Positions 17,613-63,871 of a stretch of 64,000 nucleotides of DNA are shown piece after piece. A program made the translations under genes and the position numbers. The notes beneath the pieces were generated by a model. That model ran no database searches. It was given only the letters and a program-made list of their open reading frames with translations, and was not told where the DNA came from. Each line of letters starts with the position of its first letter. Position 1 is the first letter of the stretch. This stretch comes from an uncultured Acidobacteriota bacterium (GTDB taxonomy: Bacteria > Acidobacteriota > Terriglobia > Terriglobales > Acidobacteriaceae), in contig CAWHQK010000082.1 of NCBI GenBank assembly GCA_963831435.1, positions 22,741 to 86,740 on the forward strand, read 5' to 3'.

Positions 17613-20600
17613 TCAAAATTCAAATTTCAACTGAAGTTGTATTTTCCTGGGGAATAGCAGATAACCTCCCCCGCCTCCAGTCGTAAAGTTCAGGTACTGT
17701 ATTCGTCCAAAGTTTCCGGGGATGATTTGACCAGAACCATTGACATGGTCCGAGTCGTTGGCCCCTAGATCCGCTGGACGATTGAAGATGTGCCGGTTAA
17801 AGGCATTGAGGAAGCTTACCTGCAGAAGCAAGTCTTTCGACTCCGTAATTTTGGTGCGCTTCAACAGATTGAAATCTTCACTCAGATATGGCGCCATTCG
17901 AATTGCCCCATCCACGCGCGGAAGAGTGCCAAAGGCATAGGCTCCGCGGGTCGCCAAGTTGGCTGCGGAATTAGGATCGTCAAATGCCGCGTTTGGCAGA
18001 CCTGAACTGTCTACCGGGTTGAACATACTGTCAGTGACCGGGTTGAAGTGTCCGCTCTTCCAGGCTGAGCTGAGGATCGAGCTTCCGGGCACTTGATCGT
18101 AACGAATGCAACCAGCGAAAGCGGGAACGCCAGTAGCGCAACCAAACGCTATGGGCTGTCCGCTTTCGTAGCGCTGCACGCCGCTAACAGACCATCCGCC
18201 GAGAACTTTGTCAGCGGCTTTGCTGCTTGCCAGGAATCTCTTTCCTTTTCCGACAGGCAATTCGTAGATGTAGCTGATGACTAAGTTCTGCGGCAAATCC
18301 TGGTTACTGATCGCTTTGTCACCGTCTTTATTGAAGACGTTTTGCGGTGCGCCCCCCTGGTGCAAGGTAGCGAAGAATGGCAACGCGGCGTCTGCGTTGG
18401 TCAGCGTCTTCGACCAGGTATAAGATGCCATCAGGTTCAGGCCGTTGTGGAAACGGCGCTGTAAGCTGGCTTCCAAAGCGTTGTAAGTGGATTGTCCAAG
18501 GTTTTCCAGGGCGCCGTCAGTATTGAATCCGAAGTACTGTGGGAACGGAACCAACGCCTGAGCTGCGATTAGATTGCCTGGGAATCCCGCATATGGCGGA
18601 TTTATTCCGGCGGCCGCGGCTTGCGGAGAGCTAATGAGATCAAGCAACGTTGTACCCAAAGAAAAGAACTTCGGGTTCAGCGTATTGACCGCATCGTAGT
18701 TCGAACGCAAGTTCGTGGAATGCTGGCCCACATAGGCAACGTCGAGGATCAAATCGGTTGCCAGTTCATGCTGAACTTCGACGCTCCAGTTCTGGATCAT
18801 CGGCGGACGCCCATACGATGGATCTGTATATTGCGGGCCTTGGAAGTTCAACTGTGAAGGATCCAGATTCGGAGGCGCGGCGAAGGATGGAAGACCAGAG
18901 TCTAGCGGTAACGCCGGGTCGAATCCATTTGGGCTATTGAAAGCGGGATTTGCCTGGAAGCCCGTACGGTTAAACCCACCGAAATCCGCGTATTGCAATC
19001 CGCCGTAGATAATTCCATAACCACCGCGGAATACTGTCTTGCCATGCAACATCGCAGGCGACCAAGCGAGGCCGAGCCGTGGCCCGAAATCCTTGAACCA
19101 GGTATTCGCCCAGCGCTCGTTTACGTTGCCATTACGTCCTGGCCCCTTCCCCGCAAATTCAAGAACTCCAGGTATGTTACCCGCGCCGGGATTTGGCGCA
19201 GTCAGATTGATATTGGAAGTGTCGCCGTTTGCTTCTTTCTGCGGCTGGTCAATATCGTAGCGCATGCCGTAGTTGATGGTTAAGGTTGGCGTGATCTTGA
19301 ATCCGTCCTGGAAGAATCCCGCCCAGTAGCTGCGGGTCCAGCGCGGCTGGCTAGCATAAGAGGACAAATTCACGCTGGTGGGAAGCCCCAAAAGCATGCT
19401 TGCAATGCCATTGCCGCTCAAGTTGGAGGTAGCAGCCGTGCCAGCCGTCGGCCCGTGATCGAAGTTGAAAGTACCGCTAGTATTTTGGAAGTTGAGAGGC
19501 GAGTACTGTTGATACCAATCCTCAAATCCAAATTTGAATTCGTGTTTGCCGTGGACCCAGGTAAATGTGTCGGCAAAACGGAAACCGTTGTCAATCGTGT
19601 CGCCGTCAACATTGTCGCCGAAACCGGTTGCATCAGAGTTTCCGATCTGCGGAAACATTACGCCACTCGTCCCGGTGATTCCCAGTTGCGCATCCCAGTC
19701 CGTACCCTTGCCCAGCTTTACTCCGGCGCCCACGTTTTTACTATTGGTGCGGTTATAGCCGAGGTTTAGGTGGTTAATCATCTCCGGGCTCAGCGTGTAG
19801 TCATATCCGAAGCGGACGAAATGCGTTCCAAAGAACTGATCGCGACCAAAGCCGGCAGGGCCTGCGAATATTGGGTTCGTAGAAATACGAACATTTTCGC
19901 GAGAGTTGTATGTGAAATACGCTTTGCTCTTCTCCGAAATATTCTGATCAATTCGGAACGTGGTGGTTGTATCCAGAATGGGAAAACTGAACGGGAACGT
20001 GAAGTTGTTAATCAGGTTGCCATTTTGCGGCGTGGGATAAAACGAAATAATGTTCTGGCCCACGTTTGAAAATCGGTTTGTGGGAATAACGTTCCCCGTG
20101 CTTCCCGGCTCGTTCATGAACGCGGTGCGACATTCCACGCCGCCGACGGTCTGCGTTGTGTTGGGATCGAAGATTTCCCCCTGGAAAATCGAGGTTCCGT
20201 CACACGGATTAGTACCCAATATGTTGGCTGTATTCAGCTGCGCCGTGAAATCGCCTCCCAGTTCCGCCGCGGTTGGCACGCTGGAAGTTGAAACTCCACC
20301 TTGCGTCTGGCGGTATTGCTCCCAGGAAAAGAAGAAGAAGGTCTTATCTTTTCCGTTGTAAATGTGCGGGATGACGACAGGGCCGCCGAGCGTCAAGCCG
20401 TAATCATTTTGGCGGTCAAGCGGTCGCTGCGCTGCGGCGCGCGCTGATGGAGTCGGATTCTGGGACAAAACATAATTGTTACCCCAGAAGTTGGCATCGA
20501 GATCTTCGTTGCGGAAAAGATCATATGCCACGCCGTGATAAGCGTTGGTGCCTGACTTTGTGTTAAAGCTCTCGATGCCGCCAGTAGTGCGTCCGAATTC

Positions 20601-21332
20601 GGCGGGAAGAGTCGAGGTGATGACCTTGAATTCGCTGAGCGCTTCGACAGAGGGAGCGGTTTCGTCGAACGACGAACCATTTTCCGAACGAGTTGTGCCC
20701 GCGCCATCCAGTAAAACTTCGGTCGCGTAGTTTTGTCCACCGGTGATTTTGGATTCGAAAGTGCCTCCGTTACCGGAATCGGAGCCCGGGCCTACCGCTC
20801 CGGGCGTTAAGAACACAAACGCTTCAGGTGAGCGCATCGCCTGGACCGTGCTGCCGAGGGCGAGTGGAAGATCCAGGGTTTGTTTCTGCGTAATGACGGT
20901 GCCGATGTCTTCACTTTCTGACTGCACGTGAGGAGCATCCGCGTTCACGACAACATTTTCGCTGACCACGCCCGCTTGCAAGTTGATGTCCAGAGCACTG
21001 GTGGTTGCTACCTGCACCAAGACACCTTTCATCTGTATGGTCCGGAACCCATCTGCGGTAGCGGTAAGGTCATATGATCCGATGCTTAGGTTGGGGAAGC
21101 GATAAGAGCCGGCGCTGCTGGAAACTGTTTGATAAGTTGCGCCTGTAGAAACGGCAGTAGCGGTAATTTTCACATTTGGGACAACCGCGCCGGAAGGATC
21201 AAGCACGTTTCCGGCAATCGAACCCTGGTTGGTTTGTGCAACAGCGACACCGAGCATGATTGCCATAACCAGCGCAAGTTGCAACGGACGGACGCCGACA
21301 AAACGCAAACACCCGCGTCTTAAGTGATTCAT
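17613..21332 (-). CDS. TonB-dependent receptor with carboxypeptidase-regulatory-like N-terminal domain (intact, about 1239 aa)
   Basis: An ATG at 21332 preceded by GAGGGAG gives a signal peptide ending VAVAQ. CarboxypepD_reg-like segment: GSIAGNVLDPSGAVVPNVKITA...YRFPNLSIGSYDL. The plug and barrel follow, and the canonical terminus is RKIQLQLKFEF. Confidence 0.9.
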   Translation of the reverse strand: MNHLRRGCLRFVGVRPLQLALVMAIMLGVAVAQTNQGSIAGNVLDPSGAVVPNVKITATAVSTGATYQTVSSSAGSYRFPNLSIGSYDLTATADGFRTIQMKGVLVQVATTSALDINLQAGVVSENVVVNADAPHVQSESEDIGTVITQKQTLDLPLALGSTVQAMRSPEAFVFLTPGAVGPGSDSGNGGTFESKITGGQNYATEVLLDGAGTTRSENGSSFDETAPSVEALSEFKVITSTLPAEFGRTTGGIESFNTKSGTNAYHGVAYDLFRNEDLDANFWGNNYVLSQNPTPSARAAAQRPLDRQNDYGLTLGGPVVIPHIYNGKDKTFFFFSWEQYRQTQGGVSTSSVPTAAELGGDFTAQLNTANILGTNPCDGTSIFQGEIFDPNTTQTVGGVECRTAFMNEPGSTGNVIPTNRFSNVGQNIISFYPTPQNGNLINNFTFPFSFPILDTTTTFRIDQNISEKSKAYFTYNSRENVRISTNPIFAGPAGFGRDQFFGTHFVRFGYDYTLSPEMINHLNLGYNRTNSKNVGAGVKLGKGTDWDAQLGITGTSGVMFPQIGNSDATGFGDNVDGDTIDNGFRFADTFTWVHGKHEFKFGFEDWYQQYSPLNFQNTSGTFNFDHGPTAGTAATSNLSGNGIASMLLGLPTSVNLSSYASQPRWTRSYWAGFFQDGFKITPTLTINYGMRYDIDQPQKEANGDTSNINLTAPNPGAGNIPGVLEFAGKGPGRNGNVNERWANTWFKDFGPRLGLAWSPAMLHGKTVFRGGYGIIYGGLQYADFGGFNRTGFQANPAFNSPNGFDPALPLDSGLPSFAAPPNLDPSQLNFQGPQYTDPSYGRPPMIQNWSVEVQHELATDLILDVAYVGQHSTNLRSNYDAVNTLNPKFFSLGTTLLDLISSPQAAAAGINPPYAGFPGNLIAAQALVPFPQYFGFNTDGALENLGQSTYNALEASLQRRFHNGLNLMASYTWSKTLTNADAALPFFATLHQGGAPQNVFNKDGDKAISNQDLPQNLVISYIYELPVGKGKRFLASSKAADKVLGGWSVSGVQRYESGQPIAFGCATGVPAFAGCIRYDQVPGSSILSSAWKSGHFNPVTDSMFNPVDSSGLPNAAFDDPNSAANLATRGAYAFGTLPRVDGAIRMAPYLSEDFNLLKRTKITESKDLLLQVSFLNAFNRHIFNRPADLGANDSDHVNGSGQIIPGNFGRIQYLNFTTGGGGGYLLFPRKIQLQLKFEF

Positions 21333-23001: not shown

Positions 23002-24852
23002 TCAGGGCCGATTCCCTGAAACGGGGTCCTTACCCTCTTCGATCATAAAGTAACGATCGATTGCGGGCAGCGTCAGGTTTTGTACACTCCCGCTCGGCCA
23101 ACGGATTTCGACTTTGTCCACTTTAACAGTATCGCCCAATCCAAAGTGCACTCGCGGGTCGTTACACGAGGCGAAACTTCCCCCGCTCAGAACATCAGCC
23201 CGCTGCTTGATGCCCCCGGCAGTTAAATAGACGGTCGCTCCGACTGCATCCTTTGGACTTTTTGGGCCCCCGATCAGTTTAAGTCCCACCCAGTGGTTCT
23301 TGTCGCCGTTGACGTTGCGCAGCAGGGCAGGCGACCGGTCCAACTGGTTTATGACGACGTCAATTTTCCCGTCATTGAACAAATCACCAAATGCAGCGCC
23401 GCGCGCGGTAAACACCTCCGCCAGTCCTGTTCCCGTCACCGCAGGCATTACTTCAAATTTCTTGCCGCCAAGGTTGTGAAATACCACGGGGCGTTGCGCG
23501 TAGGTGGTGCCCCATCCTCTGTTGTCCACCTGCGGATAAACATGGCCATTGGCCACGAACAAATCCTTCCAGCCGTCATTGTCAAAATCCAAGAAGCCCG
23601 TGCCCCATCCAAGAAACGGGATGGTGACTTCCGCAACCCCCGCCTGATAGCTAATCTCTGTGAAGTTTGCGTCCCCATCGTTGCGGTAGAGCGGATTGTA
23701 GTCATCAGAAAAAACAGTGTTATAGAGATCAAGCCAGCCATTGTTGAGATAATCTCCCACGGCAATTCCCATGGATGCAGTTTCGCGCCCATCTTCATTC
23801 AAGGCATAGCCAGAGGCGTAGCTCGCGTCTTCGAAAGTCCCGTTCCCCTTATTGATGTACAAATAATTCGGCGTAGAATCGTCGGCGACGATCAAGTCGG
23901 GCCGGCCATCGTTGTTCAAATCGGCAAATACCGCGGTCAATCCGTAATACGCATTGGCGTCTGCAACGCCAGCTTTTTCGCTCACATCGGTAAAAGTGCC
24001 GTCGCCATTGTTGTGGAACAAGTGATCACGCTCGCCCTGCAACCCTCGAGGACCGCACATAACATTGATGCCGCGAAATTCGCAGGTGGCAAACTTCACC
24101 GATGCCGATCCCGGGTTTGGAGGGTGGTCCAGATCAAAGTGCACATAACCGGGCACAAAAAGATCTAGCCGGCCATCGCCGTCGTAGTCGCCGAATGTGG
24201 GCCCGGTGGACCAGGCACCTACGGTGACTCCAGCCTTTTCCGCAACGTCGGTAAAAGTCCCGTCGTGATTATTGTGGTAAAGGCGGTTCTTGCCATAGTT
24301 GCTCACATAAATATCAGGCCAACCGTCGTTGTCGTAGTCGCCGATGGCAACGCCGAATCCCCAACGATCGTTTGTGACCCCAGCTTTCGCTGCAACGTCC
24401 GTGAACGTGCCGTCGTGATTGTTATGAAAGAGAGCAGCGCGAGGGGAAGTAGCTTTTCCAGTCAGTGCGTCAAACGTCGATCCGTTGACAAGATAAATAT
24501 CCAGCCAGCCGTCATTGTCGTAGTCGAGGAGTGCAACGCCGGAGCCGACTGTTTCCAGAATGAATTTTTTTTCCGGAGAACCCGAAATGTGGTGCCACTT
24601 ACTGAGGCCTGCTTTTCCCGCGATATCCTGAAAAACAATTGGACCCGACTCCACAAACCCGCCGGCGGTAATAGGGCGCTTCTGTGTATCCAATACCGGG
24701 GCATACACGCCTCCCGTGGAGACGGCCCCCGCCTGTGGCGCTTGCTGAGGCTTCAGTTCCGCTGGCACCGATTGCGCAATCGCAATCGCAGAAGACAAGA
24801 ACAACCCGAAAAAGAACGACCCGAAAAGAACACAGTGCGCGAGTTTACGCAT
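23002..24852 (-). CDS. CRTAC1-family protein (FG-GAP/VCBS repeats + ASPIC/UnbV C-terminal domain)
   Basis: Sec signal peptide. Repeated units DYDNDGWLDIYLVN, DYDNDGWPDIYVSN, LFHNNHDGTFTDVA. C-terminal module: NHWVGLKLIGGPKSPKDAVGATV...DPRVHFGLG...VEIRWPSG. Confidence 0.88.
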   Translation of the reverse strand: MRKLAHCVLFGSFFFGLFLSSAIAIAQSVPAELKPQQAPQAGAVSTGGVYAPVLDTQKRPITAGGFVESGPIVFQDIAGKAGLSKWHHISGSPEKKFILETVGSGVALLDYDNDGWLDIYLVNGSTFDALTGKATSPRAALFHNNHDGTFTDVAAKAGVTNDRWGFGVAIGDYDNDGWPDIYVSNYGKNRLYHNNHDGTFTDVAEKAGVTVGAWSTGPTFGDYDGDGRLDLFVPGYVHFDLDHPPNPGSASVKFATCEFRGINVMCGPRGLQGERDHLFHNNGDGTFTDVSEKAGVADANAYYGLTAVFADLNNDGRPDLIVADDSTPNYLYINKGNGTFEDASYASGYALNEDGRETASMGIAVGDYLNNGWLDLYNTVFSDDYNPLYRNDGDANFTEISYQAGVAEVTIPFLGWGTGFLDFDNDGWKDLFVANGHVYPQVDNRGWGTTYAQRPVVFHNLGGKKFEVMPAVTGTGLAEVFTARGAAFGDLFNDGKIDVVINQLDRSPALLRNVNGDKNHWVGLKLIGGPKSPKDAVGATVYLTAGGIKQRADVLSGGSFASCNDPRVHFGLGDTVKVDKVEIRWPSGSVQNLTLPAIDRYFMIEEGKDPVSGNRP

Positions 24853-24871: not shown

Positions 24872-25987
24872 TTAAGAAGAACGACGCGGAGCCAACGCCT
24901 TAATAAGATCAGTTTCTTTCACGTTATAAGGCGTTCCGTCCTTACGGAAGATGTCGTGAAACCACAGAGGCGGTTCCGCGGTGTATTTCTTTGTCCATGA
25001 GTCCCATGGATAAATGGTTTGCGATTTTCCGCTGACGAACCCCCAGTTGTAGGCGCCAACATGTTCTTTTTTCAGTAATGGAAGAATGGACTGGAAGGTG
25101 CTTCCTCTCGGCCGGGCCATATACTCGGTGCAAATCAGCGGGCGTTTGAATCGCCGCAACATGTCAATTCGTTTTTGCATCTCTTGCGGAGGATCATAGT
25201 CGTGGAAGGTGATCACGTCGGAATTGTGCAGCTGAAAGCGGGCCATGTCACTCAGCGTTGCATCGCTCGTCCAATCACCTTGCCAAACCCCGCTGGTCAA
25301 AGGCTGGGTAGGCCTCGCCGCGCGGGCCCATTGCCACTCCAGCTTCAGCAGTTTTAGAGCGACTTCCGCTTTGTTGGGAACTTCACCATTTTTTTTGGAA
25401 TTATCATTGTCCGGCTCATTCATCAGGTCCCACATGAGGACGCGATGGTCATTGGCCAGGTGTCCGATGACGCCCATGATGTAAGGCTTCAGCAGCGTGT
25501 TCCATGAAGCGGGATCTTTCAAAATGGTGGCGCCCGGAGCCTGCACCCAGCGTGAATTGTGCACGTGAGGAATTGGATCGGGTTGTTTGCCGGGTTTGGG
25601 ATTTGGGTCCCATACAGAATCGAGCAGAACAAATGTAATGCGAATGTGGTGCTTGTCGGCAACATCCAAAAACTGGTCAATGCGATGTAAAAATCCCTGC
25701 GAGTCCTCCTGCCAGGGGATATTGTGCAGAAACACTCGCATGGAATTCATGCCCAATCCCTGCGCCCAGCCCAGTTCGCGATCAATGGTTGGCAGATCGA
25801 AGGTGTCGGCCTGCCACATTTCCAACTCGTTCACGGCCGTGCTCGGGATAAAGTTGCTTCCCAGCGGCCACGCCTGCTTTGCATACCATTCATTGGCTTG
25901 TTCCACCGACCACTGTTGTGCATGCGCGGCGGAAGCAAAACTAACGGCCAGAAACAGCAGGAAAAGAACTATCCATCGTGATCGCAT
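24872..25987 (-). CDS. secreted clan GH-A glycoside hydrolase (GH5-like TIM barrel)
   Basis: Signal peptide ending AAHAQ. Acid/base motif MWDLMNEPDN and candidate nucleophile motif LICTEYM. The family subtype was not resolved. Confidence 0.6.
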   Translation of the reverse strand: MRSRWIVLFLLFLAVSFASAAHAQQWSVEQANEWYAKQAWPLGSNFIPSTAVNELEMWQADTFDLPTIDRELGWAQGLGMNSMRVFLHNIPWQEDSQGFLHRIDQFLDVADKHHIRITFVLLDSVWDPNPKPGKQPDPIPHVHNSRWVQAPGATILKDPASWNTLLKPYIMGVIGHLANDHRVLMWDLMNEPDNDNSKKNGEVPNKAEVALKLLKLEWQWARAARPTQPLTSGVWQGDWTSDATLSDMARFQLHNSDVITFHDYDPPQEMQKRIDMLRRFKRPLICTEYMARPRGSTFQSILPLLKKEHVGAYNWGFVSGKSQTIYPWDSWTKKYTAEPPLWFHDIFRKDGTPYNVKETDLIKALAPRRSS

Positions 25988-32404: not shown

Positions 32405-32454
32405 GCTAACCACCACGATCGCACAACCGACAAAATGCCGAGAAAAATGATCGG

Positions 32455-32466
32455 GTAAACGTTTGC
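32455..32466. promoter_or_regulatory. LacI-type operator half-palindrome in the divergent promoter region of 32404(-) and GH43(+)
   Basis: GTAAACGTTTGC shares the AAACGTTT core with the sites at 21454, 21474 and 27713. Confidence 0.45.
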
Positions 32467-51130: not shown

Positions 51131-52425
51131 GCGTATCCTCCTGTCACATGGCTAGGGTCCGACTCAGAAAGTTCCACGGCCAGATTTTCCAATCGCGCCG
51201 GAAAAACCGGGGGCCGCACTGAGTCTAAGCGCCAATCGAAAAGAAATTGTGTTGCCGGTCCACATATTCGTCCCTGGCACGGACCCATTCCGCAACGCGT
51301 GTGGAGTTTTGCTGCCCGCCAGGAACTGTAGGGCGTGAGTTGCGAATAGGAAACGTCTTCGCAGCGGCAAACGGTTGTTTCCGCGGAAGGCAGGTCGCGC
51401 AATTCAGGGCGCATTGCAAATGTTTTATCAAGCGATTTAGCGAAGTTCTGCATCGCTTTGCGCCGTTTAAAGAGGTGGGCCGCGGCATCCTTGTTGCCCG
51501 CCGAAGCCAAGCCCGCAATCTGACCTTCCACAATAGAGAGATCCAGACCGCCGATTCCGGTTGGTTCCCCGGCGCAGAAAATATCGGACTGCGAAGTTTG
51601 CTGAAAGTCATTTACCTCAACATAGCCATCGAGAGTGCGGCAGCCAAGCGACTCTGCGAGCTCTGTGTTCGGCACCAAATGGAAGCCACAAGCGAGATAG
51701 TCGCAGGCAATCGTTTCTGTTTTTGCGCCGCGACGAATCATTACCTGTTCGAGGGCATCCTTCCCGATCGCTTCAATCGGCCAGCTGCCCGGGACAAAAG
51801 GAATGCCCGCAAGTTCTTTTCGCAGTGACATTGCCTGTTGAACTTTTTGTGGATAGCGCAAAAGGCCCAGGCTGAATCGGGCCAGCGGAACCCAGGGCCG
51901 CTGTTCGCAGATCATGAGAATTTCAGCCTCGTGCTGATGAAGAAACGAGGCCACCGCCAGCAACAAAGGGCCGGTACCGGCAATCACCACCCGTTTGCCT
52001 TGAATCGGGAGTCCGGATTTGACCAAAGCCTGCAAGCCACCGGCGCCGAGGACGTTGAGCAATGTCCATCCTGGAAACGGCAGAAAGCGTTCCCTTGCGC
52101 CGGTTGCCAGAATCAATTTTTGATAACGCAATTCGCAAAGGCCATCGTCCTGTTCGGCAAGCAAGCAACCTGCACTCGACTGACTGAAGACCCGCGTGCC
52201 GCAAATTTCTTGTACTCTGGCCGCCCGCAGTCGTAGGGCCCAACTCTTCGCTTCAGGAGCCAGACCGATGGTTTCCCCCCGCCATATCTGGCCGCCGACA
52301 CCGGGATTATCGTCCACTACTCCCACGCGCGCGCCCGACTCTGCCGCACAGGCGGCCGCGGCAATTCCCGCCGGTCCGGCCCCTACGACAAGTACATCGA
52401 ATTCTTGTTCGGCAACTCTACGCAT
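51127..52425 (-). CDS. lhpE: NAD(P)/FAD-dependent oxidoreductase with BFD-like 2Fe-2S C-terminus (HcnB / opine-oxidase-A / D-Hyp dehydrogenase alpha-like)
   Basis: FDVLVVGAGPAGIAAAACAA, a second Rossmann fold KRVVIAGTGPLLL, and C-terminal VCRCEDVSY...RCGMGPCQGRICG. Confidence 0.8.
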   Translation of the reverse strand: MRRVAEQEFDVLVVGAGPAGIAAAACAAESGARVGVVDDNPGVGGQIWRGETIGLAPEAKSWALRLRAARVQEICGTRVFSQSSAGCLLAEQDDGLCELRYQKLILATGARERFLPFPGWTLLNVLGAGGLQALVKSGLPIQGKRVVIAGTGPLLLAVASFLHQHEAEILMICEQRPWVPLARFSLGLLRYPQKVQQAMSLRKELAGIPFVPGSWPIEAIGKDALEQVMIRRGAKTETIACDYLACGFHLVPNTELAESLGCRTLDGYVEVNDFQQTSQSDIFCAGEPTGIGGLDLSIVEGQIAGLASAGNKDAAAHLFKRRKAMQNFAKSLDKTFAMRPELRDLPSAETTVCRCEDVSYSQLTPYSSWRAAKLHTRCGMGPCQGRICGPATQFLFDWRLDSVRPPVFPARLENLAVELSESDPSHVTGGYA

Positions 52426-52684
52426 CGGTCTGAACCTTCATGCCAGATTCGCAAACGATTTGGCAACTTCGGCGATGCCGCTTTCCATTAATTACCACGC
52501 GACATTCAAAACAAATTCCCATTCCGCATAGTGGTCCGCGCTGTTGTCCCTTCACCGAGCGGCGGCAAGCTCCGCCTTGGCGCGCGACCGCAACAGCTAC
52601 AGTGGTGCCATAATTCACTGTCACGGGATTTCCATTTACCGCAATCGTGATTTGTTTCCCAACTTTTTCCATTACTGGCGTCAT
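52418..52684 (-). CDS. lhpF: small (2Fe-2S)-binding subunit (HcnA / D-Hyp dehydrogenase gamma-like)
   Basis: 88 aa. Motifs [12 protein letters not shown]...[25 protein letters not shown]. It overlaps both neighbouring genes (8 nt and 4 nt). Confidence 0.75.
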
Positions 52685-53634
52685 GCCGGAATTCCCATGC
52701 AGAAAGGATCCTGCTCATCCAGAATTAAGTCAGATTCGGCATTCACGAAGGCCGTCCCTTTTATGCTGGGATGGATTTGCCCATCGCGGACTCGAATGCT
52801 TCCCTCGAAAACGCTCCCTACGATGCTTTCCTGTTTCCAAATCTGGCCTTCACGCAGTTTTCCGTCGGCGTAAAGACACGCCAGTTTCGCGCTCGTTCCG
52901 GTCCCACACGGTGAGCGGTCGTAAGCTTTGCCGGGGCAAAGGACAAAATTTTTACTGTTAATTCCCGGACGGGGCGAAGGAGCGAATAGTTCTATGTGGT
53001 CAATTTCTTGACCATTGGCTCCGGTGATTCCCTGAGCTGCGAGTGCGCGCCGGACTGCCCAAGTGAAACTCGTCAAAGCTTCAAGGTTGTCTATGGATAG
53101 GTCCTGCGTGTGGTCTTCAATCAGAAAAAACCAGTTGCCACCCCAAGCGACATCGCCAACTACTTTACCAATTTCAGGGACGTCTACAGCCACTTTGGCG
53201 GCGATCCGATAACTGGGAACGTTGTTGACCGTCACTGCTCCATCTTCATGCAAGATCGCCGTCACAGTTCCCACAGGAGTTTCGATCTGGTGTTCGCCGT
53301 ATTGAATTCGCCCCATATGGAAAAGTGTCACGATTAATCCGATAGTCCCGTGTCCGCACATTCCGAGATAGCCAACATTGTTAAAGAACACTATGCCCGC
53401 CACGCAATCTGGATCCACCGGCTCGCATAAAAGCCCGCCAACCATCACATCAGTTCCTCGGGGTTCTTTCACGACGGCAGAGCGGAAGGCATCGTGCCTG
53501 GTACGGAATTCTTCCAGCCGGCTGGAGAGCGGGCCCTTTCCAAGATCAGGGCCACCGCTGATCACTAACCGCGTGGGTTCCCCGCCAGTATGAGAATCAA
53601 TCACGCGAATTCTCTTAGGCGTTCCAAGTTTCAT
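52681..53634 (-). CDS. lhpA: 4-hydroxyproline 2-epimerase (proline-racemase family, Cys/Cys type)
   Basis: Both catalytic motifs are present with Cys: [12 protein letters not shown] and [15 protein letters not shown]-terminus [14 protein letters not shown]. Confidence 0.85.
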
Positions 53635-53913: not shown

Positions 53914-56900
53914 TTAGAATTCGAAATTCGCTCGCAATTCGATGGTGCGGGCGCCACCATCAGGAAGCTGGTTGGGGTAAGGGTTCCGCTGCTGGTCGCA
54001 AAGGAACCACTCGTTACGTTGGATTGGCCTCCTTGGCCTCCATTTGTGAACGGCGGTCCAAAGGTTGGGTGGTTAAACGCATTGAGCATCAAGGCCTGCA
54101 GGTTAAAGCGCATTTGCTCGGTAATGGCGAAGTTCTTTGTGATTGAGACGTCGTCATACGTCGCATGCGGGCCGTAAAGCCAGACCCTCTGGCCAATTGT
54201 TCCCGCAGTTGTGTTTGGGACGATGAACTGCGGATTAGCCCCACCACCGCCAACGGTTGTGTTCATGTAGTACTTCGGGTCAAGGAATGCAGTGGTGGTG
54301 GTTCCGGGAATATGGTGCGCCCCGACGGAGCTTTGCAGTTGGCTTGAGGTGACTCCATTCAAAACCACCCCGCCATCCGCGAAGTCATTGAAGGTATTGT
54401 TCTGGCCCTGCAGCAAGAACGGATATCCGGTCTGGAAAGTGAAAATGCTGCCTATCGTCCAGCCGCCAACGATTCGGTCAAGGATCGGGCTGCCATTGGC
54501 AAATTGCTTACCTCTGCCAAATGGCAAATCGTAGGTGCCGTTAATGTGGATCACATGCCGCAGATCAAACAATGTTGGTCCATAACTCAAGTGCATGTCG
54601 CGAATTGTAAACAGGGCGCCTTGTCCCTGCCAGTTGTTCTGCGAAGCATTGCCAAGCGTGTGGCTCCAAGTATAGTTAGCGTCAAACTGCAGACCGTGCC
54701 ATGACCGCTGGCGGAAATCCACTTGCAACGCATGATAAGTGGAAACCGCTTCCGCTTCGGTCAAGCTGGGATAACCAAAACCGGTGCCTTGGGCAAAGGG
54801 ATTGGTTTGGAAGAAGTTGATCGGATAACCGGCGCCAGCGCCTGCAAACCCGAGGTTGTTGGCGCATGGCGCGAAACCTGCGCCGACCAAATTGCAGAAG
54901 TAGGGCACGGTTCCATTGATCCCAGCCAGGGTGCTGGCCATAGCGCAGGCAGATCCCGTGTTCAATTGCGAGATGAATTGGGCGTTTCCATAATCCGCGA
55001 GCGGCACACCTGCGCCACCCGCAGCTTCGCCCGCAAACGCGGCATCAAAAATCGGCGTAGCCTGTTGCCCAGCAAAGCCATTATTTGCGAATGAATTGGT
55101 GATTCCGTTTGCTTGATTTATGGCTAGATTGCCTTGGGCCTTCTGAAACTCACCGAGAAATCCATTTTCAAAAATGTTGACCTCATCGGTAGGAATCGGA
55201 ACCCACTGTCGCGGGGTGATGCTTCCCACGTAACGCACTTCAAGGGCGCGATTCTCCCCGATCTGCCGCTGAATCCCCAGGTTCCATGATTCAGTGTAAG
55301 GCTGCTGAATATCGTGCTTGATGCCGTTCACACCCAGGTCCCGTTCCAAGGAACGTAAAGTCCCCAATCGGTTCGGTTTTCACAAACTTTTGCGGAGTGA
55401 GCACGTACGGGATTCCGAACGCATTGATTGGATCCGAAGCCCCGGAATTAAAATCACTGATAGATAAGCTTCCGGGCTGGAAGGTACCGGGCCCGCCGCT
55501 GCCGTTCGCGTTCAATCCGAATCCCTGATAATAGAAGGAACCGTAATCAGAAGCTTGGTTCCATACATACTGCTGGGGTTCGGTGAATTTCCTCAATGAG
55601 AAGCCTGCTCGAACAACGGTTTTGTCGCCGCCTATTAATCTGCCGAGCCGATTGTTGGAAGGGTTCCAGGCAAGGCCGATGGCCGGCTGCGGAGCAACAT
55701 TCCAGTTGTTGTAGGTCTGGCTGATCTGCGAAATTTGCGGATCAGCAATTCCTTTCAAGGAACCTGGATTGAAGATATTCCCAATACCTGATGGCCCCCA
55801 GACGCTCTCCTCGCTCACGGAGTGATAGAGGTTCGAGAGATCTTTGTCAGCCGAAGTGAAATCCCAACGCAAGCCATAGTTGAGGGTCAAATTTTGCCTT
55901 ACGCGATAGGAGTCCCCTGGAAAAACAAACCCCATGCCCCTTCCAATTCATCGAGATTGTATCTTCCAACAATGTGCTGATAGTCATCCGCGCTCGGAAC
56001 AAAGGGGTACGCTCCGCTTACGCTGCTGATGCGGCCGGCAAGGATTGCATAGAGCTGCTGGGCCTGATTTTGGATGGTGGTGTCGCCTCCGCTCGTGCCC
56101 CCAAGCGTACCGCCCGCTCCGATCGTAAATGCATTCTTGGCGGGATCGCCATTTGCCAAACCAAAGTTGACGACTGGAAATCCCTGCGCCGGGTTGTCGT
56201 GGTGAATTAAAAATAGCGCCAAGAAAGCCGGTAATTCATTGTGTGTTTGCCATGCTGCAGCGTCATCGTGTCGGAAGCATTGAACACTGGATAGTAAGTC
56301 TGGATGCCGGTGTAGAAAATTGTTCCTGACATCTGCGTGTTGAACGGTTGCTGGACATTTGTATAGTTCCAGCCAAGCTGCGGATTCGTTATGTCGAGCG
56401 GCGGGGCGTTGTAGGAGTCAAGATTGTTGTTGTACAGGAAGCCGCCGCGGAGCGAATTAATCAGGTTTGGGTGATCGTCCAGTCGAAGCCAAAGCCCGCG
56501 GTGTAGTCTTTGTTGCTGGCGCCCGCGCCCGTTTTGGACCAGGCTGAGCCTGGGAAATCGGGCGGGTGCACACCCGGTTGATTCTGTTTCGTCATGTTCC
56601 AGGACAAATTGAAACGCATTGCGTCGGAAGCGATGTAATCCACGCGGATCGTCGGAAAATAACGCGTTGTGGGATCAGGTACCTGCCACGTCAAGTTCTG
56701 AACGTTAGGGTCGCCCAGATCAGAGGGCGACAGTTGGCCAGAAGTCACCGCGGTATTGGTGGTTTGAAATACGGATGCTGTCGAAGAATTGACTGTGGTA
56801 GGAAGATTTGCTCCGGGATGACTTGCGTTGTAGTTGGCCGCCAATGCGAAAAGGTTTACTGTTTGGCCGCCATAGGTAAAGTCGCCGTTCTGCGCTGCCT

Positions 56901-57866
56901 GCGTAAACACGTAGTTCGTGGTGCTGTATGCGCCGGGCTGCTTTCCTTCCGCATAATGCCGAAGAAGAACAACTTGTTCTTGATGATCGCTCCACCAACA
57001 CTAAACCCGAATTCGTTCAGGATGAGAGCATTTTTCTTTACCGGACTGCCCAGGATCGAGGTAAGAGCATCGTTACTCCAACTATTGGCGTCGAGAGCTG
57101 AATTTCTGAAATCTTCGTAGACGCGGCCATGGAACCGATTGCTGCCGCGACGGGTAACAAAATTGAGCTGCATATTGGACTGGCCATAGCCCTGGTCCAG
57201 ATTTAGCTGTTCGGTTTGCACCGTCATCTCTTGCATGTCTTCCAATCGGGGCTGTACGATTGGCTCTGAATTCCCGCTAAACTTCATCCGGCTTGAGCTG
57301 CTGATCACGCCATCTATATTGTTTCCCTGCGCGATGGAGGGCAGCCCATCATAGGTTCCGTTGTATCCAGCAACTAAATGGGAAAGTTGCGTCAAGTCGC
57401 GGCCTTGAATCGGAAGACTTTCGATTTGCTTCAGATCAATGGTCGTGCCGATGGCGTTCGAGCTCTCTTCGACCACGGGAGCGGCCGCGGCATTGACTTC
57501 GACGGTCTGACCCTGCGTTCCGATCTTGAGGTTAGCGGTAAGGTCTGTGGTCTGCGCCGCCTGCGAAACCACGCTGCTGAAGACCACATCCTGAAATCCT
57601 GTTTTCGAAATCGTGAGCTGATAGTTACCGAGTTCGAGATTGACGAACGTGTAGGTGCCGCTGTCTGTTGTGATACCTTTGCGGACATCGCTGGTGGAGA
57701 GATCCTTCAATTCCAATTGGGCGCCCGGCACCACGCTGCCGCTCGGATCAACAACCGTCACAGCTACGGTTCCAGTGTTCCCGTGCTGTGCCCACGCCAA
57801 TGGAAGGTTAGAGACAAATACGGCAAGAACACAGATGACGGCAACTCGAAAAGATTTCGCGGACAT
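53914..57866 (-). pseudogene. TonB-dependent receptor (CarboxypepD_reg-type), fragmented by at least six frame changes
   Basis: N-terminus: signal peptide plus GTVAVTVVDPSGSVVPGAQLELK. Successive ORFs 56856-57866, 56461-56910, an unlisted frame at 56223-56460, 55899-56222, 55291-55935 and 53826-55367 together read as one barrel. The canonical terminus GARTIELRANFEF-stop (stop at 53914-53916) lies in yet another frame. Confidence 0.8.
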
Positions 57867-58036: not shown

Positions 58037-59764
58037 ATGAACAAGCCTTCCACCATTTCGAGACGTAATTTGCTCAAGGCGATGGGAACAGTACTGGCTG
58101 CCGCGCCATTAGCGAGAGCTGGAGTCCAAGCTGCAAACTCTGTGAATTTTGTGGATATAGCGCGCTCGTCGGGGATTACTTTCCAGCACGAAAACGCAGC
58201 GTCAGCCGAGAAATACCTGATTGAAACCATGGGATCTGGATGCGGCTGGATTGACTATGACCAGAATGGATTGCTTGATCTTTATCTGGTCAACGGGGCA
58301 TCGACCCGCGCCCACAGTTTTGCGAAGCCGCCGCGAAGCGCTCTCTATCGCAACAACGGCGATGGAACTTTTACCGATGTCACTTCAAGAGCCGGTGTAG
58401 GCGCGGAAGACTTATTCGGCATGGGCGTGGCTGTCGGCGACTATGACAACGACGGCTTCCCAGACCTCTTCGTGCTTGGCTACGGCCGTTGTGTGCTGTA
58501 TCACAACAATGGCGACGGCACCTTCACGGATGTAACGAGAAAAGCAGGCGTGGGAAATACTGAACGCTGGGGCTCAAGTGCTGCCTGGTTCGATTACGAC
58601 AATGACGGACATCTGGATTTAGTGATTGCCAACTACGTGGACTGGTCTCCGGAGAACAATTTCTATTGTGGAGACCATGGGCCGGGGATGCGCAGCTACT
58701 GCCATCCTGATGATTTCCACGGTCAATCTCCCACTCTCTATCACAACAACGGGGACGGCACCTTCACTGATGTAAGCAAGTCATCCGGCGTGGGCGCAAA
58801 GCGCGGCAATGGTTTGGGCGTAGTCACATTTGATTACGACGACGACGGCTGGCAGGACATTTTTATCGCCAACGACCACATGCCGAATTATCTCTTCCAT
58901 AACAACCGGAATGGCACGTTCACGGAAGAGGGCTACGAAGCTGGTGTCGCGGTGAGTGGCGACGGCCAATTTGAAGCGGGCATGGGCACCGACGCAGCTG
59001 AAACTTCCGCCAATGGACGCATGGATATTGCCGTTACTCACCTCGACCTGCAGTTGGCGCGCCTATACAGGAATAGAGGAGATGGCACATTCGATGATGC
59101 GACGTTGCAATCCAAAATCGGCTACTCCACTTACCATGCGAGCGGCTTCGGAACCCGCTTCATGGATTATGACAATGATGGCCGCCGCGATCTGTTCATG
59201 GCCAATGGCCACGTGCTGGACAATATTGAGAGGTACCACGCTGATACGCATTATGCCGAGCCAAAATTCATGTTTCGTAACATGGGCGGCGGTATCTTTC
59301 AAAACGTCAGCAATCTTCTCGGGCCGGACTTCCAACTGCCGCGAGTAAGCCGCGGCGCGGCCATTGCCGACTTCGACAACGACGGCGACCTCGATATTCT
59401 GGTAAATAACAACGGTCAAGTTCCTCAGCTTCTGCGGAATGATGGCGGGAATGCCAATCATTGGCTGCAAATTTTGTTGATCGGCACCAAATCCAATCGC
59501 GATGGAGTGGGTGCCCGCGTCAAAGTTTCCGCCGGAGACCTTGTTCTTGTTGATCAAAGAAAAGGGGGCATGAGTTACCAGTCGGCGCAGGATCCCCGAT
59601 TGCATTTCGGGCTGGGGCAACATACAAAAGTGGATGCGATAGAAATTCGTTGGCCCAGCGGAATGGTGACAAAACTGGGGAATTTAAAAGCTGACCAGAT
59701 TATTGCCGTTCAGGAAGGCTCTGGAATTGTGGAGCGGCCATTCCCTCGTGTTCCACAGAAATGA
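58037..59764 (+). CDS. CRTAC1-family protein (FG-GAP/VCBS + ASPIC/UnbV), Tat-like signal
   Basis: Signal STISRRNLLKAMGTVLAAAPLARA. Repeats DYDNDGFPDLFVLG, DYDNDGHLDLVIAN and [14 protein letters not shown]-terminal module: NHWLQILLIGTKSNRDGVGARV...HFGLG...IEIRWPSG. Confidence 0.88.
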   Translation: MNKPSTISRRNLLKAMGTVLAAAPLARAGVQAANSVNFVDIARSSGITFQHENAASAEKYLIETMGSGCGWIDYDQNGLLDLYLVNGASTRAHSFAKPPRSALYRNNGDGTFTDVTSRAGVGAEDLFGMGVAVGDYDNDGFPDLFVLGYGRCVLYHNNGDGTFTDVTRKAGVGNTERWGSSAAWFDYDNDGHLDLVIANYVDWSPENNFYCGDHGPGMRSYCHPDDFHGQSPTLYHNNGDGTFTDVSKSSGVGAKRGNGLGVVTFDYDDDGWQDIFIANDHMPNYLFHNNRNGTFTEEGYEAGVAVSGDGQFEAGMGTDAAETSANGRMDIAVTHLDLQLARLYRNRGDGTFDDATLQSKIGYSTYHASGFGTRFMDYDNDGRRDLFMANGHVLDNIERYHADTHYAEPKFMFRNMGGGIFQNVSNLLGPDFQLPRVSRGAAIADFDNDGDLDILVNNNGQVPQLLRNDGGNANHWLQILLIGTKSNRDGVGARVKVSAGDLVLVDQRKGGMSYQSAQDPRLHFGLGQHTKVDAIEIRWPSGMVTKLGNLKADQIIAVQEGSGIVERPFPRVPQK

Positions 59765-59767
59765 CTC

Positions 59768-60919
59768 TCATCGCGATTCTTTTTCATTGTTATTGGCATC
59801 CGCGTTGGCGGCGGCGTCTCTTTCCATAACGTAGCCGGCTTTGCTGTCGCCGGACGCCGCGGCGATGCGCGCTTCTTGCTGACGGTTCAAATCACTTAGG
59901 ATTTTTAGCATCTGTTGTGCTTGTTTAAGATCTCCGTGCCGCCGGTAAGCCGTCGCCAGGTTCGTATATGAAGATGGGTTATCGGGTTCGAGACGCCGCG
60001 CGATTTCCAGATGTGAGATCGCGTCATCGAGACGATTCTCCATTAAGTAAAGTCTCCCTAAATCAATTTGTACTCCAGCGTCATTGGGGCGGGCTGCGAC
60101 AGATTCTTCAAAAGCCGCCTTGGCTTCGGCGAACTCACGCTGACCCGGCGTAAGGCCAGAACGAAAAAGCGCCTGTCCGAGAATCGTTAGCAAAGCGGCG
60201 GTCTGGTGATGGTTTGCAATTCCCTCGCGGGCTATCCGAATCGATTCCGAAATGTTTCCGGCGAATAAATTTTCCTGCGCTTGAGCAATGAAGGCGATAT
60301 CGCTGCCGGGCTCGAGCTTAGCGGCAATTTCGAAATCCTTTCGGGCAATGTCCATTTGATCGAGATGGGCCAGAAATGTTCCGCGCTGGTAATGAAGCCG
60401 TGCTGATTGGGGAAGATTCTGCAAACCGGCATCAACGATCTTGAGGCCAAGGTGGTAATTCTGGCTGTCCGTGCAGGCGTCAGCAACAAACAAATATAGC
60501 TTTTCGTTCGTGGGCGCGAGCGCGGCAGCTTTTTCAAAACTTTCGAGCGCCTGTTGAGGTTGGTCATCGCCCACATAAGCTTGGGCCAGTAAGTTGTAAA
60601 CATTCGCGTCGTGCGGACCACCAGCCAAGGAAGTCAAAAGGGGGATTGCACTATTGAATTGGCCGGTCGCAACATAACACAGAGCCAAATCAAAGTTTGC
60701 TGCATATTCGTCTGACACATGACCGCGCGCCTCCAGAAGATGAGGAATGGCCGCGGCGAAATCACCGTTACTGGTTAGCTTGATTCCAGCCTGCAATTCG
60801 GCTTCGAGTTCCGCGGAGTTATTCGTTCTTCCCTGGGATTCAGAGTCAGTGGGGCTCTGTTGCGCAAAACACACTACGGTGAAAAGCATAAGAACAAAAA
60901 TGAATGCCACGTGCCTCAT
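59768..60919 (-). CDS. secreted TPR-repeat protein
   Basis: Signal peptide FIFVLMLFTVVCFAQ followed by TPR units (for example ANVYNLLAQAYVGDDQPQQALESFEKAAALAP). It starts 21 nt after the stop of the upstream CRTAC1 gene. Confidence 0.85.
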   Translation of the reverse strand: MRHVAFIFVLMLFTVVCFAQQSPTDSESQGRTNNSAELEAELQAGIKLTSNGDFAAAIPHLLEARGHVSDEYAANFDLALCYVATGQFNSAIPLLTSLAGGPHDANVYNLLAQAYVGDDQPQQALESFEKAAALAPTNEKLYLFVADACTDSQNYHLGLKIVDAGLQNLPQSARLHYQRGTFLAHLDQMDIARKDFEIAAKLEPGSDIAFIAQAQENLFAGNISESIRIAREGIANHHQTAALLTILGQALFRSGLTPGQREFAEAKAAFEESVAARPNDAGVQIDLGRLYLMENRLDDAISHLEIARRLEPDNPSSYTNLATAYRRHGDLKQAQQMLKILSDLNRQQEARIAAASGDSKAGYVMERDAAANADANNNEKESR

Positions 60920-60940: not shown

Positions 60941-62674
60941 TTACTTCCATTCTTTTTGCCCTTCGGTGATGGTGATATAGCGGTCAATTGGCAAATCCGT
61001 AAATCGTTCTACCTTGCCGCTCGGCTGGGGCCAGCGCACTTCGATCCAATCAAGTTTAGTCCTCTGGCCCAATCCTAAAATCATTCTTGGATCGTGCGCG
61101 GAAAGATAGCTTCCTCCACCGACCTTGTACCGGTGCCGCTGAAAGTCCCCTGACTGGTAAGTGATTTTCGCGCCGACGGCATCCACATTGGCTTTAGTCC
61201 CAACCAGGCGCACGCCCAGCCAATGGTTCTGTAATCCTGCATTGTTGCGCAGCAAAATCGGCGCATCGTTGTTCTGAGCTACGAGCACATCCACTGAGCC
61301 GTCATTGTTGAAGTCGCCGAGGGCCACCCCTCGCCCCGCGAGCGGAGTGGAAAAAATGGGGCCGCTCTGTTCGCTGACATTCTGAAATCCGCGCTCTGTA
61401 TTCCGGAATAACAGCATTGGCTCCCGATATTTCACATTGGCCAGCCGCTCTTCTACCTTGTCGTCCGGATGTCCATTGCACAAAAGAAGGTCAATCTCGC
61501 CGTCATTATCGTAATCAGAAAAACTTCAGCCCCCAACCGCTCAACAGGCGTGTGGCTGGACCAATGCCTGTGGGATTTGCAATATCACTGAAGACTTCGT
61601 TTTTGTCATTGCGGTAAATCGAAAACATTTCCTGATCAACGTTGGCTTCAAAAAGATCAATCCAGCCGTCCTGGTTATAGTCCGCGGCATCAACACCCAT
61701 GCCGGAGCGCGGATGACCAAACACATTGACTCCAACGCCCGCGAGCAGTCCGATCTCCTCGAAACGGCCTTTGCCACGATTCGCAAACAGGAAATTCGGG
61801 ACGGTGTCATTGGTCACATAAAGGTCCATCAAGCCGTCATTATTTATGTCGGCAGCAACCACTCCCCAGGCCTTGGCCATGGAGGAGGCGATTCCGCTTT
61901 CCTTGCTGACGTCGGTAAACGTGCCGTCTCCATTATTGTGAAACAGCCTGCAGGGCATGGGATCGTAGATCGTGGGAATGCAATAGTGCCGTTCGCCGGT
62001 TGTCCGGTTGCCGCAGAACTTGAGCTTCTCTTTGCTATAGTCCACGAAGCGGCAAACAAAAAGATCAAGGCGCCCGTCGTTGTCATAATCAAACCACACC
62101 GCGCTGGTAGACCACCCGGCGCGTCCACGCCAGCCTTCGCCGTCACATCGCTGAATGTTCCGTCGCCATTGTTGTGGTAGAGAATGCTGCGGGGGTATTG
62201 CGTAACGTAGAGATCGGGGAAACCGTCGCCGTCATAATCTCCGACCGCGACACCCATGCCATAAGCATTTCCGGGAACTCCAGCTTTCGCGGTGACGTCA
62301 GTGAACGTGCCATCGCGGTTGTTGTGATAAAGCGCGTTGCTGAGGGGCTTCGCCGGCTGGAAAAAATCGCAGGGGCCGCTGTTCACCAGATAAATGTCCA
62401 TCCATCCATCGTTGTCGTAATCGAGAAATCCGCAACCCGGCCCTACCGTTTCCGGCAGATGCGCCATAGGAGAGCGCCCATTCACATGGCGCCAGGAAAT
62501 GCCGCTGCTCGATGCTGGAATTTGTTCGAATGCGGGCAAAGAATGCTTGGGAGCATCGAGTCCAAAGGCGGGAGGTGCGAATGCAATCTGTGCTGCCGCT
62601 CCAGCGGCGGTGCACAACTCAAGAAATCGGCGACGGGATATTCTGCCGCGTAAAGACTGCCGGGAGCTAGACAC
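60941..62674 (-). pseudogene. CRTAC1-family protein with Tat signal, interrupted by two frame breaks
   Basis: Tat signal [17 protein letters not shown]. ORFs 61844-62674, 61515-62099 and 60941-61483 are collinear parts of one gene. The breaks are at the G run near 62115-62117 ([17 protein letters not shown]) and near 61516-61519 (GLKFF-DYDNDGEIDLLLCNG). Confidence 0.8.
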
Positions 62675-63700: not shown

Positions 63701-63871
63701 GAAGAACCGCCCCTCGATTACCGGCATTATATCGACAACTTGAAATGAATATATTTCCGGCCAGCTCGTTTAGGATACAATATCCATATCCGCAGTATGT
63801 TTTTATCTTTCTGATTCTATGACGGTAGCGACTTCGCCACCTGTGCGATCCGCTCCATTGCCAGGAGGAGT

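Follow-up and report, generated by a model that had tools for sequence, protein, structure and literature searches.

A conserved pair of CRTAC1-family propeller and TPR genes beside transporter-like and glycoside hydrolase genes in Acidobacteriota

Here we report a recurrent gene module in a 64,000-nt stretch of DNA from an uncultured Acidobacteriaceae bacterium (contig CAWHQK010000082.1, assembly GCA_963831435.1; the whole stretch is called the window below), which holds five genes of the CRTAC1 family, each for an FG-GAP/VCBS propeller with a UnbV_ASPIC domain, and five genes for secreted tetratricopeptide repeat (TPR) proteins. The propeller-TPR pair is conserved, is often fused into one protein, and is enriched beside genes for transporters of the CarboxypepD_reg type and among glycoside hydrolase (GH) genes. 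The reading we prefer, with belief and doubt in about equal measure, is that the pair forms a portable cassette that binds substrate or hands it over in transporter-centred glycan utilisation. We know of no function for the bacterial CRTAC1/ASPIC/UnbV proteins, a family with 15,548 representatives at E 1e-30 or better (counted as clusters at 50% identity). Our literature searches found no description linking them to TPR partners or transporters, and nothing on CRTAC1 together with TonB, SusD or polysaccharide utilisation loci (PULs), or on PUL-like loci with TPR proteins in Acidobacteria. The pattern itself can be read from RefSeq annotation, and the function we attach to it would be guilt by association.

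A preliminary description of this DNA, made from the letters alone, had placed five CRTAC1 copies with TPR neighbours in the window, and Pfam bears out the domains of both: FG-GAP_3 (E 1e-49 to 1e-59 in the intact copies) and UnbV_ASPIC are matched in all five propeller genes (C1 to C5, the last in three fragments), and the products of T1 to T5 are multi-repeat proteins that pass the gathering scores of several Pfam TPR models. The gaps it listed also agree with our table of open reading frames (ORFs), with 11 nt between C3 and T3, a 4-nt ATGA overlap between T3 and T2, 21 nt between C5 and T4, 63 nt between T5 and C5, 198 nt between C1 and T1, and 3 nt between the convergent C4 and T4. Gene order differs from module to module, being C1>T1>TBDR1 (a transporter-like gene discussed below), C3>T3>T2, and T5>C5>T4 with C4 converging on T4. 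In an alignment of the paralogues each copy has five to seven DxDxDGxxD loops, and the linker (10 protein letters not shown) and the C-terminal motifs are kept; the DYDNDG loops and a longer pattern (37 protein letters not shown) are conserved, as the preliminary description had it for the loops and the C-terminal module. Calcium binding at the DxDxDG loops may be predicted from these motifs. Protein identity is 40-49% among C1, C3, C4 and C5 and 29-35% between C2 and the other four, and this low mutual identity marks the copies as old, differentiated duplicates. T1 to T5 share only 21-26% over long alignments, and hence are not recent copies of a single partner gene. No EGF-type Pfam domain was found in any of the five CRTAC1 copies; animal CRTAC1 has a C-terminal EGF-like calcium-binding domain. 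Scans for consensus promoters and terminators across the modules gave counts no higher than those of shuffled controls, and the best promoter-like site (22846-22817, - strand), which lies in the C1-T1 spacer, is uninformative by itself.

Judged by gene order and protein comparison, the pairing of propeller and TPR protein is a real conserved module. A census that scanned one genome per species yielded 80 loci, mostly from several classes of Acidobacteriota and also from Poribacteria, Latescibacteria and a Gemmatimonadaceae bin, with the window excluded from the counts. ORFs were called with a simple picker, CRTAC1 genes with a hidden Markov model of the five paralogues, and TPR and transporter genes by phmmer with the window proteins as queries; genes at least four positions from any CRTAC1 gene in the same loci served as background. 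A TPR gene or domain was adjacent to or fused with 72 of 123 CRTAC1 genes, compared with 6 of 455 background genes, and stood at position -1 in 40 of 116 cases (Fisher p 1.5e-24) and at +1 in 27 of 117 (p 7e-15), a 20- to 40-fold enrichment over the same-locus background. When the genes were clustered at 55% identity or more, the majority of members had a TPR neighbour in 21 of 36 clusters. The gap was 1 nt or less in 20 of 36 co-oriented pairs with the TPR gene upstream, with peaks at -4 and -1 that are not expected from over-extended start calls, and from such gaps the paired genes are predicted to be usually translationally coupled. The loci also contain 13 ORFs in which TPR and CRTAC1 are fused, with the TPR part N-terminal in 12 and Pfam confirmation for five, and an exhaustive search found N-terminal TPR repeats in 7 of 10 family representatives with an N-terminal extension of 200-360 aa. 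Fusion elsewhere, and in C2, of two families that are otherwise separate genes is the Rosetta-stone pattern of interacting pairs. Among other N-terminal partners are an FGE-sulfatase domain and pentapeptide repeats, in P0373 (846 aa) and P0358 (885 aa).

The module proposed from the window is in this way strongly enriched beyond this genome, and we give hardly any credence to the view that two families abundant in Acidobacteriota have merely landed together by chance. A 2011 analysis of paralogous gene families in Candidatus Solibacter usitatus included ASPIC/UnbV (PMC3174227), and the TPR partners in the window are barely alike, as that view would allow; the size of the enrichment, the gap peaks at -4 and -1, the recurrent fusions and the synteny across species all speak against it.

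C2 is a natural fusion of the pair. Its TPR-like region in cis had been correctly recognised; the parvulin peptidyl-prolyl isomerase (PPIC) domain ahead of that region, at aa 46-132, had been overlooked. In Pfam the helical region gives a sub-threshold match to TPR_14 (E 0.0057), and its comparison with a profile of the T proteins gives an hhalign probability of 94.6%. At least 120 orthologues are 67-94% identical to C2, and all those listed carry rotamase, FG-GAP_3 and UnbV_ASPIC domains, six of them with a Pfam TPR match. An AlphaFold2 model of C2 (mean pLDDT 80.9, pTM 0.78) is composed of the parvulin domain, a disordered linker, a helical domain (aa 178-368), the propeller and a beta-sandwich; its parvulin domain matches the parvulins of PrsA, PpiD and SurA, and the model matches murine CRTAC1 (9etn) at E 6.4e-26. 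The helical domain is predicted to pack confidently against the propeller and sandwich, since pTM reaches 0.78 though these make up ~55% of the chain. The model of C4 (pLDDT 81.8, pTM 0.86) has the same murine protein as its top Foldseek match, over its whole length (E 3.8e-31, TM 0.71/0.74, 573 columns), followed by the fungal calcium-binding N-acetylglucosamine lectins AAL2, PVL and PAL and then by integrin alpha, ITFG2 and TcB, with no enzyme near the top of the list. By domain content and modelled fold, the window proteins are members of the CRTAC1/ASPIC/UnbV family.

The other recurrent neighbour is a large outer-membrane transporter-like gene. TBDR1 and TBDR2 had been described as giant TonB-dependent receptors (TBDRs), a label to be taken as a prediction from domain architecture: both have CarboxypepD_reg and the outer-membrane barrel domain OMP_b-brl_4, TBDR1 gives a weak Plug match at the expected position (E 0.018; its 16 bits fall short of the 23.9-bit threshold), both proteins have the C-terminal ...FEF motif, and homologues are named 'TonB-dependent receptor' or 'carboxypeptidase-like regulatory domain-containing protein' in RefSeq. 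A sequence search of the PDB with TBDR1 found no match among solved structures. The proposed link between such genes and CRTAC1 holds in the census, where a TBDR-like gene occupies position -2 of the propeller gene in 15 of 109 cases against 13 of 455 in the background (p 3e-5), and in the synteny of the window's blocks in other species; the orders B>T>C, B>C>T and C>T>B, in which B is the TBDR-like gene, recur. In RefSeq, Granulicella tundricola has a 'TonB-dependent receptor', a hypothetical protein, a TPR protein and two CRTAC1 proteins in succession and, elsewhere, CRTAC1 followed by TPR, and Acidisarcina polymorpha has a carboxypeptidase-regulatory-domain protein followed by CRTAC1 and then TPR. 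Both are cultured strains in which experiments on this arrangement are feasible. The genes in question are ACIX9_RS19980/19985 and RS20010>20005>20000>19995 in G. tundricola and ACPOL_RS32585>32590>32595 in A. polymorpha. On Bacteroidota plasmids (hosts Hymenobacter volaticus and Chondrinema litorale) a CRTAC1-like gene, annotated as 'VCBS repeat' and coding for ~1100 aa, stands one to three genes downstream of SusC/SusD in four of five loci; three of the products are lipoproteins, and the Hymenobacter locus starts with a GH127-like gene. In three of these five loci, genes annotated as vanadium-dependent haloperoxidases adjoin the CRTAC1-like gene or lie close to it (L086 13924-14442; L090 4162-5658; L091 10829-12208).

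Proximity to large transporters could also mean that the cassette is a dedicated periplasmic aid to their folding or assembly, comparable to BamB, BamD and SurA and without any part in substrate handling, a role that we consider quite unlikely. Factors that assemble the envelope are typically TPR or propeller proteins, and the likeness of the C2 parvulin domain to those of PrsA, PpiD and SurA, the enrichment of the transporter gene beside the cassette and the indifference of the cassette to the kind of hydrolases nearby would all suit such an aid. Most cassettes, however, have no transporter gene within three genes, and five differentiated paralogues, each in its own catabolic block across species, are a better fit to substrate specificity. 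The Bacteroidota homologue, moreover, usually follows SusD by one to three genes, the typical place of accessory proteins, glycan-binding lipoproteins among them, in PULs, and lectins are the nearest structural analogues.

The blocks of the window are kept in other genomes. The run TBDR2, C4, T4, C5, T5 is found at ~81% protein identity in a Candidatus Sulfotelmatobacter metagenome-assembled genome, where genes for GH127, DUF885 and GH31 come after it, and again in a closely related locus, L083; orthologues of T5 hold the same position in L001, L003, L004 and L083. L085 preserves the run GH51, GH43, cellulase-like gene, C1, T1, TBDR1; C2 there diverges from GH51, and the orthologues of C1 (79% identical) and T1 (60%) stand at the same positions. 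In L084, C2 again adjoins GH51, near genes of L-arabinose catabolism, and in both L084 and L085 GH51 stands with a weak Cellulase match beside the C2 orthologue. Among the 13 closest metagenome loci to that of C3, seven have the order transporter>C3>T(>T), a divergent transporter-like gene is the immediate upstream neighbour in three others, and the fetched DNA of the last three contains none; the C>T>T pattern of C3, T3 and T2 recurs in C3-orthologous loci. The TPR partners consistently diverge faster than the propellers. T4 is 78% identical to its orthologue in L083 (5645-6781), compared with 97% for C4, 93.6% for C5 and 98.8% for T5, and its stretch holds several indels relative to L083, in which the flanking genes are 94-99% identical. 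Divergence or recombination seems to be concentrated locally at T4.

The catabolic setting had been put down to plant-derived polymers, and for this locus that description stands: genes for GH51, GH43, an alpha-galactosidase, a DUF5695 protein and hydroxyproline catabolism are present, with GH127 in orthologous blocks, the hydroxyproline genes, for an epimerase, a dehydrogenase and a deaminase, adjoin TBDR2, and the utilisation region also holds genes for a DPP-IV-type peptidase and an amino-acid permease. From this set of genes we infer that the substrates may be arabinan, beta-L-arabinofuranosides and hydroxyproline-rich glycoproteins. The description does not extend to the cassette elsewhere.

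Export signals are found on both partners. Among the propellers, C4 and C5 carry twin-arginine signals and the other three begin with a hydrophobic segment that has no twin-arginine motif; T1 to T5 all have hydrophobic, signal-like N-terminal segments. Elsewhere a motif resembling that of the twin-arginine translocation (Tat) pathway is present in 43 of 111 propeller homologues (~39%), and the TPR proteins mostly lack one. The idea that Tat export goes with TPR partnership found no support (no association, p 0.24). Of the TPR proteins one in 61 has a lipobox, of the propellers 8 in 111, and at that frequency the candidate role of the TPR partner as a SusD-like surface lipoprotein was rejected. 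An envelope location, with the TPR protein as a scaffold, is the arrangement that we presume.

As a substrate-binding cassette, the pair might work as follows. The propeller would be exported by a Sec or (in ~40%) Tat-like signal and would meet the TPR protein after export, and the two would pair as a heterodimer, much as the corresponding domains are arranged within the C2 fusion. The propeller would bind a glycan or glycopeptide in the manner of a lectin, and through its TPR part the complex would dock either on a further envelope protein or on the peptide portion of the substrate. Substrate would then be captured or passed on, at the transporter or to hydrolases in the periplasm. In the window, the cassettes would serve loci for arabinan, beta-L-arabinofuranosides and hydroxyproline (from plant hydroxyproline-rich glycoproteins and pectic side chains), and elsewhere the same cassette would accompany other glycan-degrading genes. 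A more specific version, in which TonB-dependent uptake of glycans in Acidobacteriota would use the pair to capture its substrate, as a non-lipoprotein counterpart of the layer of SusD and surface-glycan-binding proteins in Bacteroidota, is in our judgement doubtful. If true, it would establish PUL-like loci for a phylum that is among the most abundant in soil and give the CRTAC1/UnbV family, human CRTAC1 included, its first biochemical role, namely glycan or glycopeptide binding.

Several points weigh against a substrate-binding role of this kind. Neither partner has, as a rule, a lipid anchor or surface-sorting signal, so the default location is periplasmic and surface capture in the manner of SusD is unsupported. 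No TPR gene was detected beside 51 of the 123 CRTAC1 genes, and ~72% of the 123 have no TBDR-like gene within three genes. The neighbours in other genomes are heterogeneous: 110 of these proteins matched 146 Pfam families, among them GH2, GH3, GH16, GH127 and amidases, and as far as gene content can tell the cassette is without plant-polymer or substrate specificity. The census counts are approximate, given a crude ORF picker and five TPR queries, and the loci are related by descent, hence not independent. Finally, the Tat-like signals in ~39% of propellers would fit a cofactor-bearing enzyme as well, and the VCBS superfamily includes enzymes, among them PL11 rhamnogalacturonan lyase and aldos-2-ulose dehydratase (PMC8023676).

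These last points lead to the alternative that the propeller acts on imported glycans as an enzyme (a lyase, dehydratase or oxidoreductase that depends on a metal or cofactor), with the TPR protein as its export or folding chaperone or regulatory subunit, which we regard as unlikely but deserving attention. Besides the Tat-like motifs (C4, C5 and the 43 homologues) and the enzymes of the superfamily, it can point to redox or copper genes that are sometimes adjacent or fused (CusF-SCO1 in the window and L085, AhpC/TSA in L080, and cytochrome c) and to the position of the cassette among catabolic enzymes. Against an enzyme, the top structural matches hold none, with lectins and integrins ranking after CRTAC1; conservation in the alignment falls on the structural motifs that recur from blade to blade, and no obvious catalytic constellation appears there; the SCO1 link is missing from the other 160 loci; and Tat motifs do not correlate with TPR partnership.

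The cassette can be set beside several known systems. Animal CRTAC1 (LOTUS), an extracellular matrix and receptor-binding protein, shares the core of propeller and UnbV_ASPIC (sequence match E 3e-23) and is likewise secreted; the window copies, in contrast, have no EGF-like domain, the identity in structural alignment is 19%, and the bacterial proteins are found in catabolic loci with a TPR partner. In its working the locus resembles a PUL, yet it is not a PUL of the Bacteroidota type. Both have a CarboxypepD_reg transporter followed by a helical TPR-type protein and then by accessory or hydrolase genes, the transporter here stands beside GH51, GH43 and GH27-like genes (GH127 and GH31 in the orthologous block), and one plasmid CRTAC1 locus opens with a GH127-like gene, as may be compared with the orthologous block; the window, however, has no SusD, the TPR partners have no lipobox (one in 61), gene order is variable, and the phylum is another. 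UnbV (E4) of the enediyne cassettes has the UnbV_ASPIC domain, and many orthologues bear the JGI label 'enediyne biosynthesis protein E4', whereas the window genes examined include no polyketide synthase or other enediyne gene, and the label is an annotation transfer. To our knowledge UnbV itself has no known function. The VCBS lectins (PVL, AAL2, PAL, tachylectin-like proteins and UmbA4) are likewise seven-bladed propellers with DxDxDG loops, and the superfamily relating these propellers was described in 2021 (PMC8023676); unlike the window proteins they have neither UnbV_ASPIC nor a TPR partner, and TM scores against the window models are only 0.35-0.52. TolB with CpoB/YbgF, and BamB with BamD, are other cases in which a periplasmic propeller and a TPR protein serve an outer-membrane machine together, and the Tol-Pal pair is tied to a TonB-like energy system. 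They show no sequence kinship or specific structural kinship to the cassette, belong to other propeller families, and are single-copy housekeeping factors rather than multi-copy catabolic ones.

The recurrent partner and the setting of transporters and hydrolases supply a testable hypothesis for what is otherwise a 'hypothetical secreted propeller' in Acidobacteriota, with a parallel setting in Bacteroidota after SusC/SusD, and they raise the question of how polymers from plants are taken up by the bacteria that dominate soils.

Two of the genes on which the modules were first defined are broken in this assembly. C5 had been given as one CRTAC1 copy; its domains are as described, and two frameshifts, a deletion of 1 nt near 62115 and an insertion of 1 nt near 61518, divide it among three ORFs. 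Repaired, it encodes 577 aa, the length of the intact L083 orthologue, to which it is 93.6% identical. The transporter type given for TBDR2 agrees with its domain matches, and the gene was wrongly taken to be unbroken: the reading frame changes at least six times (55332, 55914, 56206, 56469, 56957 and ~53960-53975), and its true C-terminus, ...RANFEF, sits in another frame. It is intact in L083 and L001. The DNA of L083 is 94% identical to the window and carries both genes whole (TBDR2 at least 1242 aa, C5 577 aa), on a contig named in the k141_ style and thus probably from a short-read assembly. These frameshifts are probably assembly errors rather than signs of decay, because L083 is intact and most window fragments are 94-98% identical to it in protein with no in-frame stop codon in those compared (one frame-scrambled stretch is 68% identical). 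Part of the locus may instead be decaying, with TBDR2 and C5 true pseudogenes and the module non-functional in this strain, a reading we hold to be very unlikely. The number of breaks, at least six in TBDR2 and two in C5, would favour it, as would their clustering, uneven along the sequence, with further split genes for a DPP-IV/S9 peptidase (40178-42495), a GH27-type alpha-galactosidase (42504-43843) and an amino-acid permease (44855-46565), each in two or three overlapping ORFs. That three more genes have the same kind of frame break also suggests indel errors throughout the assembly; pseudogenes, moreover, do not sit well with the identity of most fragments, with the indels of each gene adding up to zero relative to L083, or with the like fragmentation of related long-read assemblies (L002, whose contigs have contig_-style names).

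Table 1. Propeller and TPR genes of the window with the transporter-like and catabolic genes around them
Gene	Description	Coordinates	Strand	Evidence
CusF-SCO1	CusF + SCO1/SenC fusion; start overlaps TBDR1 stop	16622-17623	-	Pfam CusF_Ec, SCO1-SenC
TBDR1	Large outer-membrane transporter-like; last gene of C1>T1>TBDR1	17613-21332	-	OMP_b-brl_4 E 5e-181, CarboxypepD_reg E 2.6e-19
T1	Secreted TPR partner, 3' of C1	21601-22803	-	Pfam TPR_2 E 1.4e-39 and others
C1	CRTAC1-family, Sec-type signal	23002-24852	-	FG-GAP_3 E 3.6e-59, UnbV_ASPIC E 8.4e-21
Cellulase-like	Cellulase-like TIM-barrel gene	24872-25987	-	Context, divergent from C2
GH51	Alpha-L-arabinofuranosidase, divergent from C2	26007-27692	-	Pfam Alpha-L-AF_C, NCBIfam ArfA-like
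C2	Fusion: parvulin peptidyl-prolyl isomerase + TPR-like helical domain + 7-blade propeller + UnbV_ASPIC	27778-30474	+	Pfam
GH43	Endo-arabinanase	32473-33564	+	Pfam Glyco_hydro_43 E 2.5e-52, NCBIfam AbnA-like
T2	Second secreted TPR gene of C3 module	33583-34830	-	Pfam TPR, ORF coordinates
T3	Secreted TPR partner, 11 nt 3' of C3	34827-35867	-	Pfam TPR, ORF coordinates
C3	CRTAC1-family, Sec-type signal	35879-37606	-	FG-GAP_3 E 9.7e-57, UnbV_ASPIC E 1.3e-22
Hydroxyproline genes	Hydroxyproline catabolism: DHDPS-like, FAD oxidoreductase, proline-racemase-family epimerase	50207-53634	-	Pfam DHDPS, Pyr_redox_2, Pro_racemase
TBDR2	Same type as TBDR1; at least 6 frame changes	53914-57866	-	ORF fragments, Pfam on fragments (OMP_b-brl_4), indels vs L083
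C4	CRTAC1-family, Tat-like signal, convergent on T4	58037-59764	+	Pfam, SRRNLL motif
T4	Secreted TPR partner, 3' of C5, fast-evolving	59768-60919	-	Pfam TPR
C5	CRTAC1-family, Tat-like signal, split by 2 frameshifts	60941-62674	-	Pfam on 3 fragments
T5	Secreted TPR partner, 63 nt 5' of C5	62738-63727	-	Pfam TPR

A copper or thiol-redox partner was considered as a general part of the cassette and rejected: the CusF-SCO1 gene accompanies it in the window and in L085, where it overlaps the stop of the C2 orthologue (12688-13599), and an SCO1-like gene is absent from the other 160 loci. A fusion of CRTAC1, AhpC/TSA and TPR occurs in L080 (1811-5701). Cytochrome c genes (multihaem c-type, Cytochrom_c3_2 and Cytochrome_C7) recur near CRTAC1 genes in a few cases, including L088 2939-4132, L093 13136-13477 and entries of the neighbour census, and a match on a Rhodobacteraceae plasmid overlaps features annotated as 'CRTAC1 family protein' and 'cytochrome-c peroxidase'.

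Other genes of the window deserve brief mention. NCBIfam has no family for the propellers, for TBDR1 or for two proteins that are also without a Pfam match, one of 789 aa with a twin-arginine signal (37781-40150, - strand) and one of 665 aa (30476-32473, - strand); both are candidates for new carbohydrate-active or accessory families. The gene for the former occupies the place that a transporter gene usually has in C3-orthologous loci, and a 661-aa Pfam-less protein beside a TPR gene in L085 (16043-18028) may be the counterpart of the latter. An Rfam search near the transporter genes found no riboswitch or other RNA element, only two tRNAs. The DUF5695 protein (47379-50153, - strand; 924 aa, full-length, Pfam 1328.6 bits) is encoded between a GntR/FCD regulator and the hydroxyproline genes and is plainly part of the utilisation region. 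Upstream lie further genes for secreted or envelope proteins, namely a GH9-like protein (7910-10486, + strand), a Kelch-repeat propeller (12694-13737, + strand) and FecR with DUF6600 (13814-16288, - strand).

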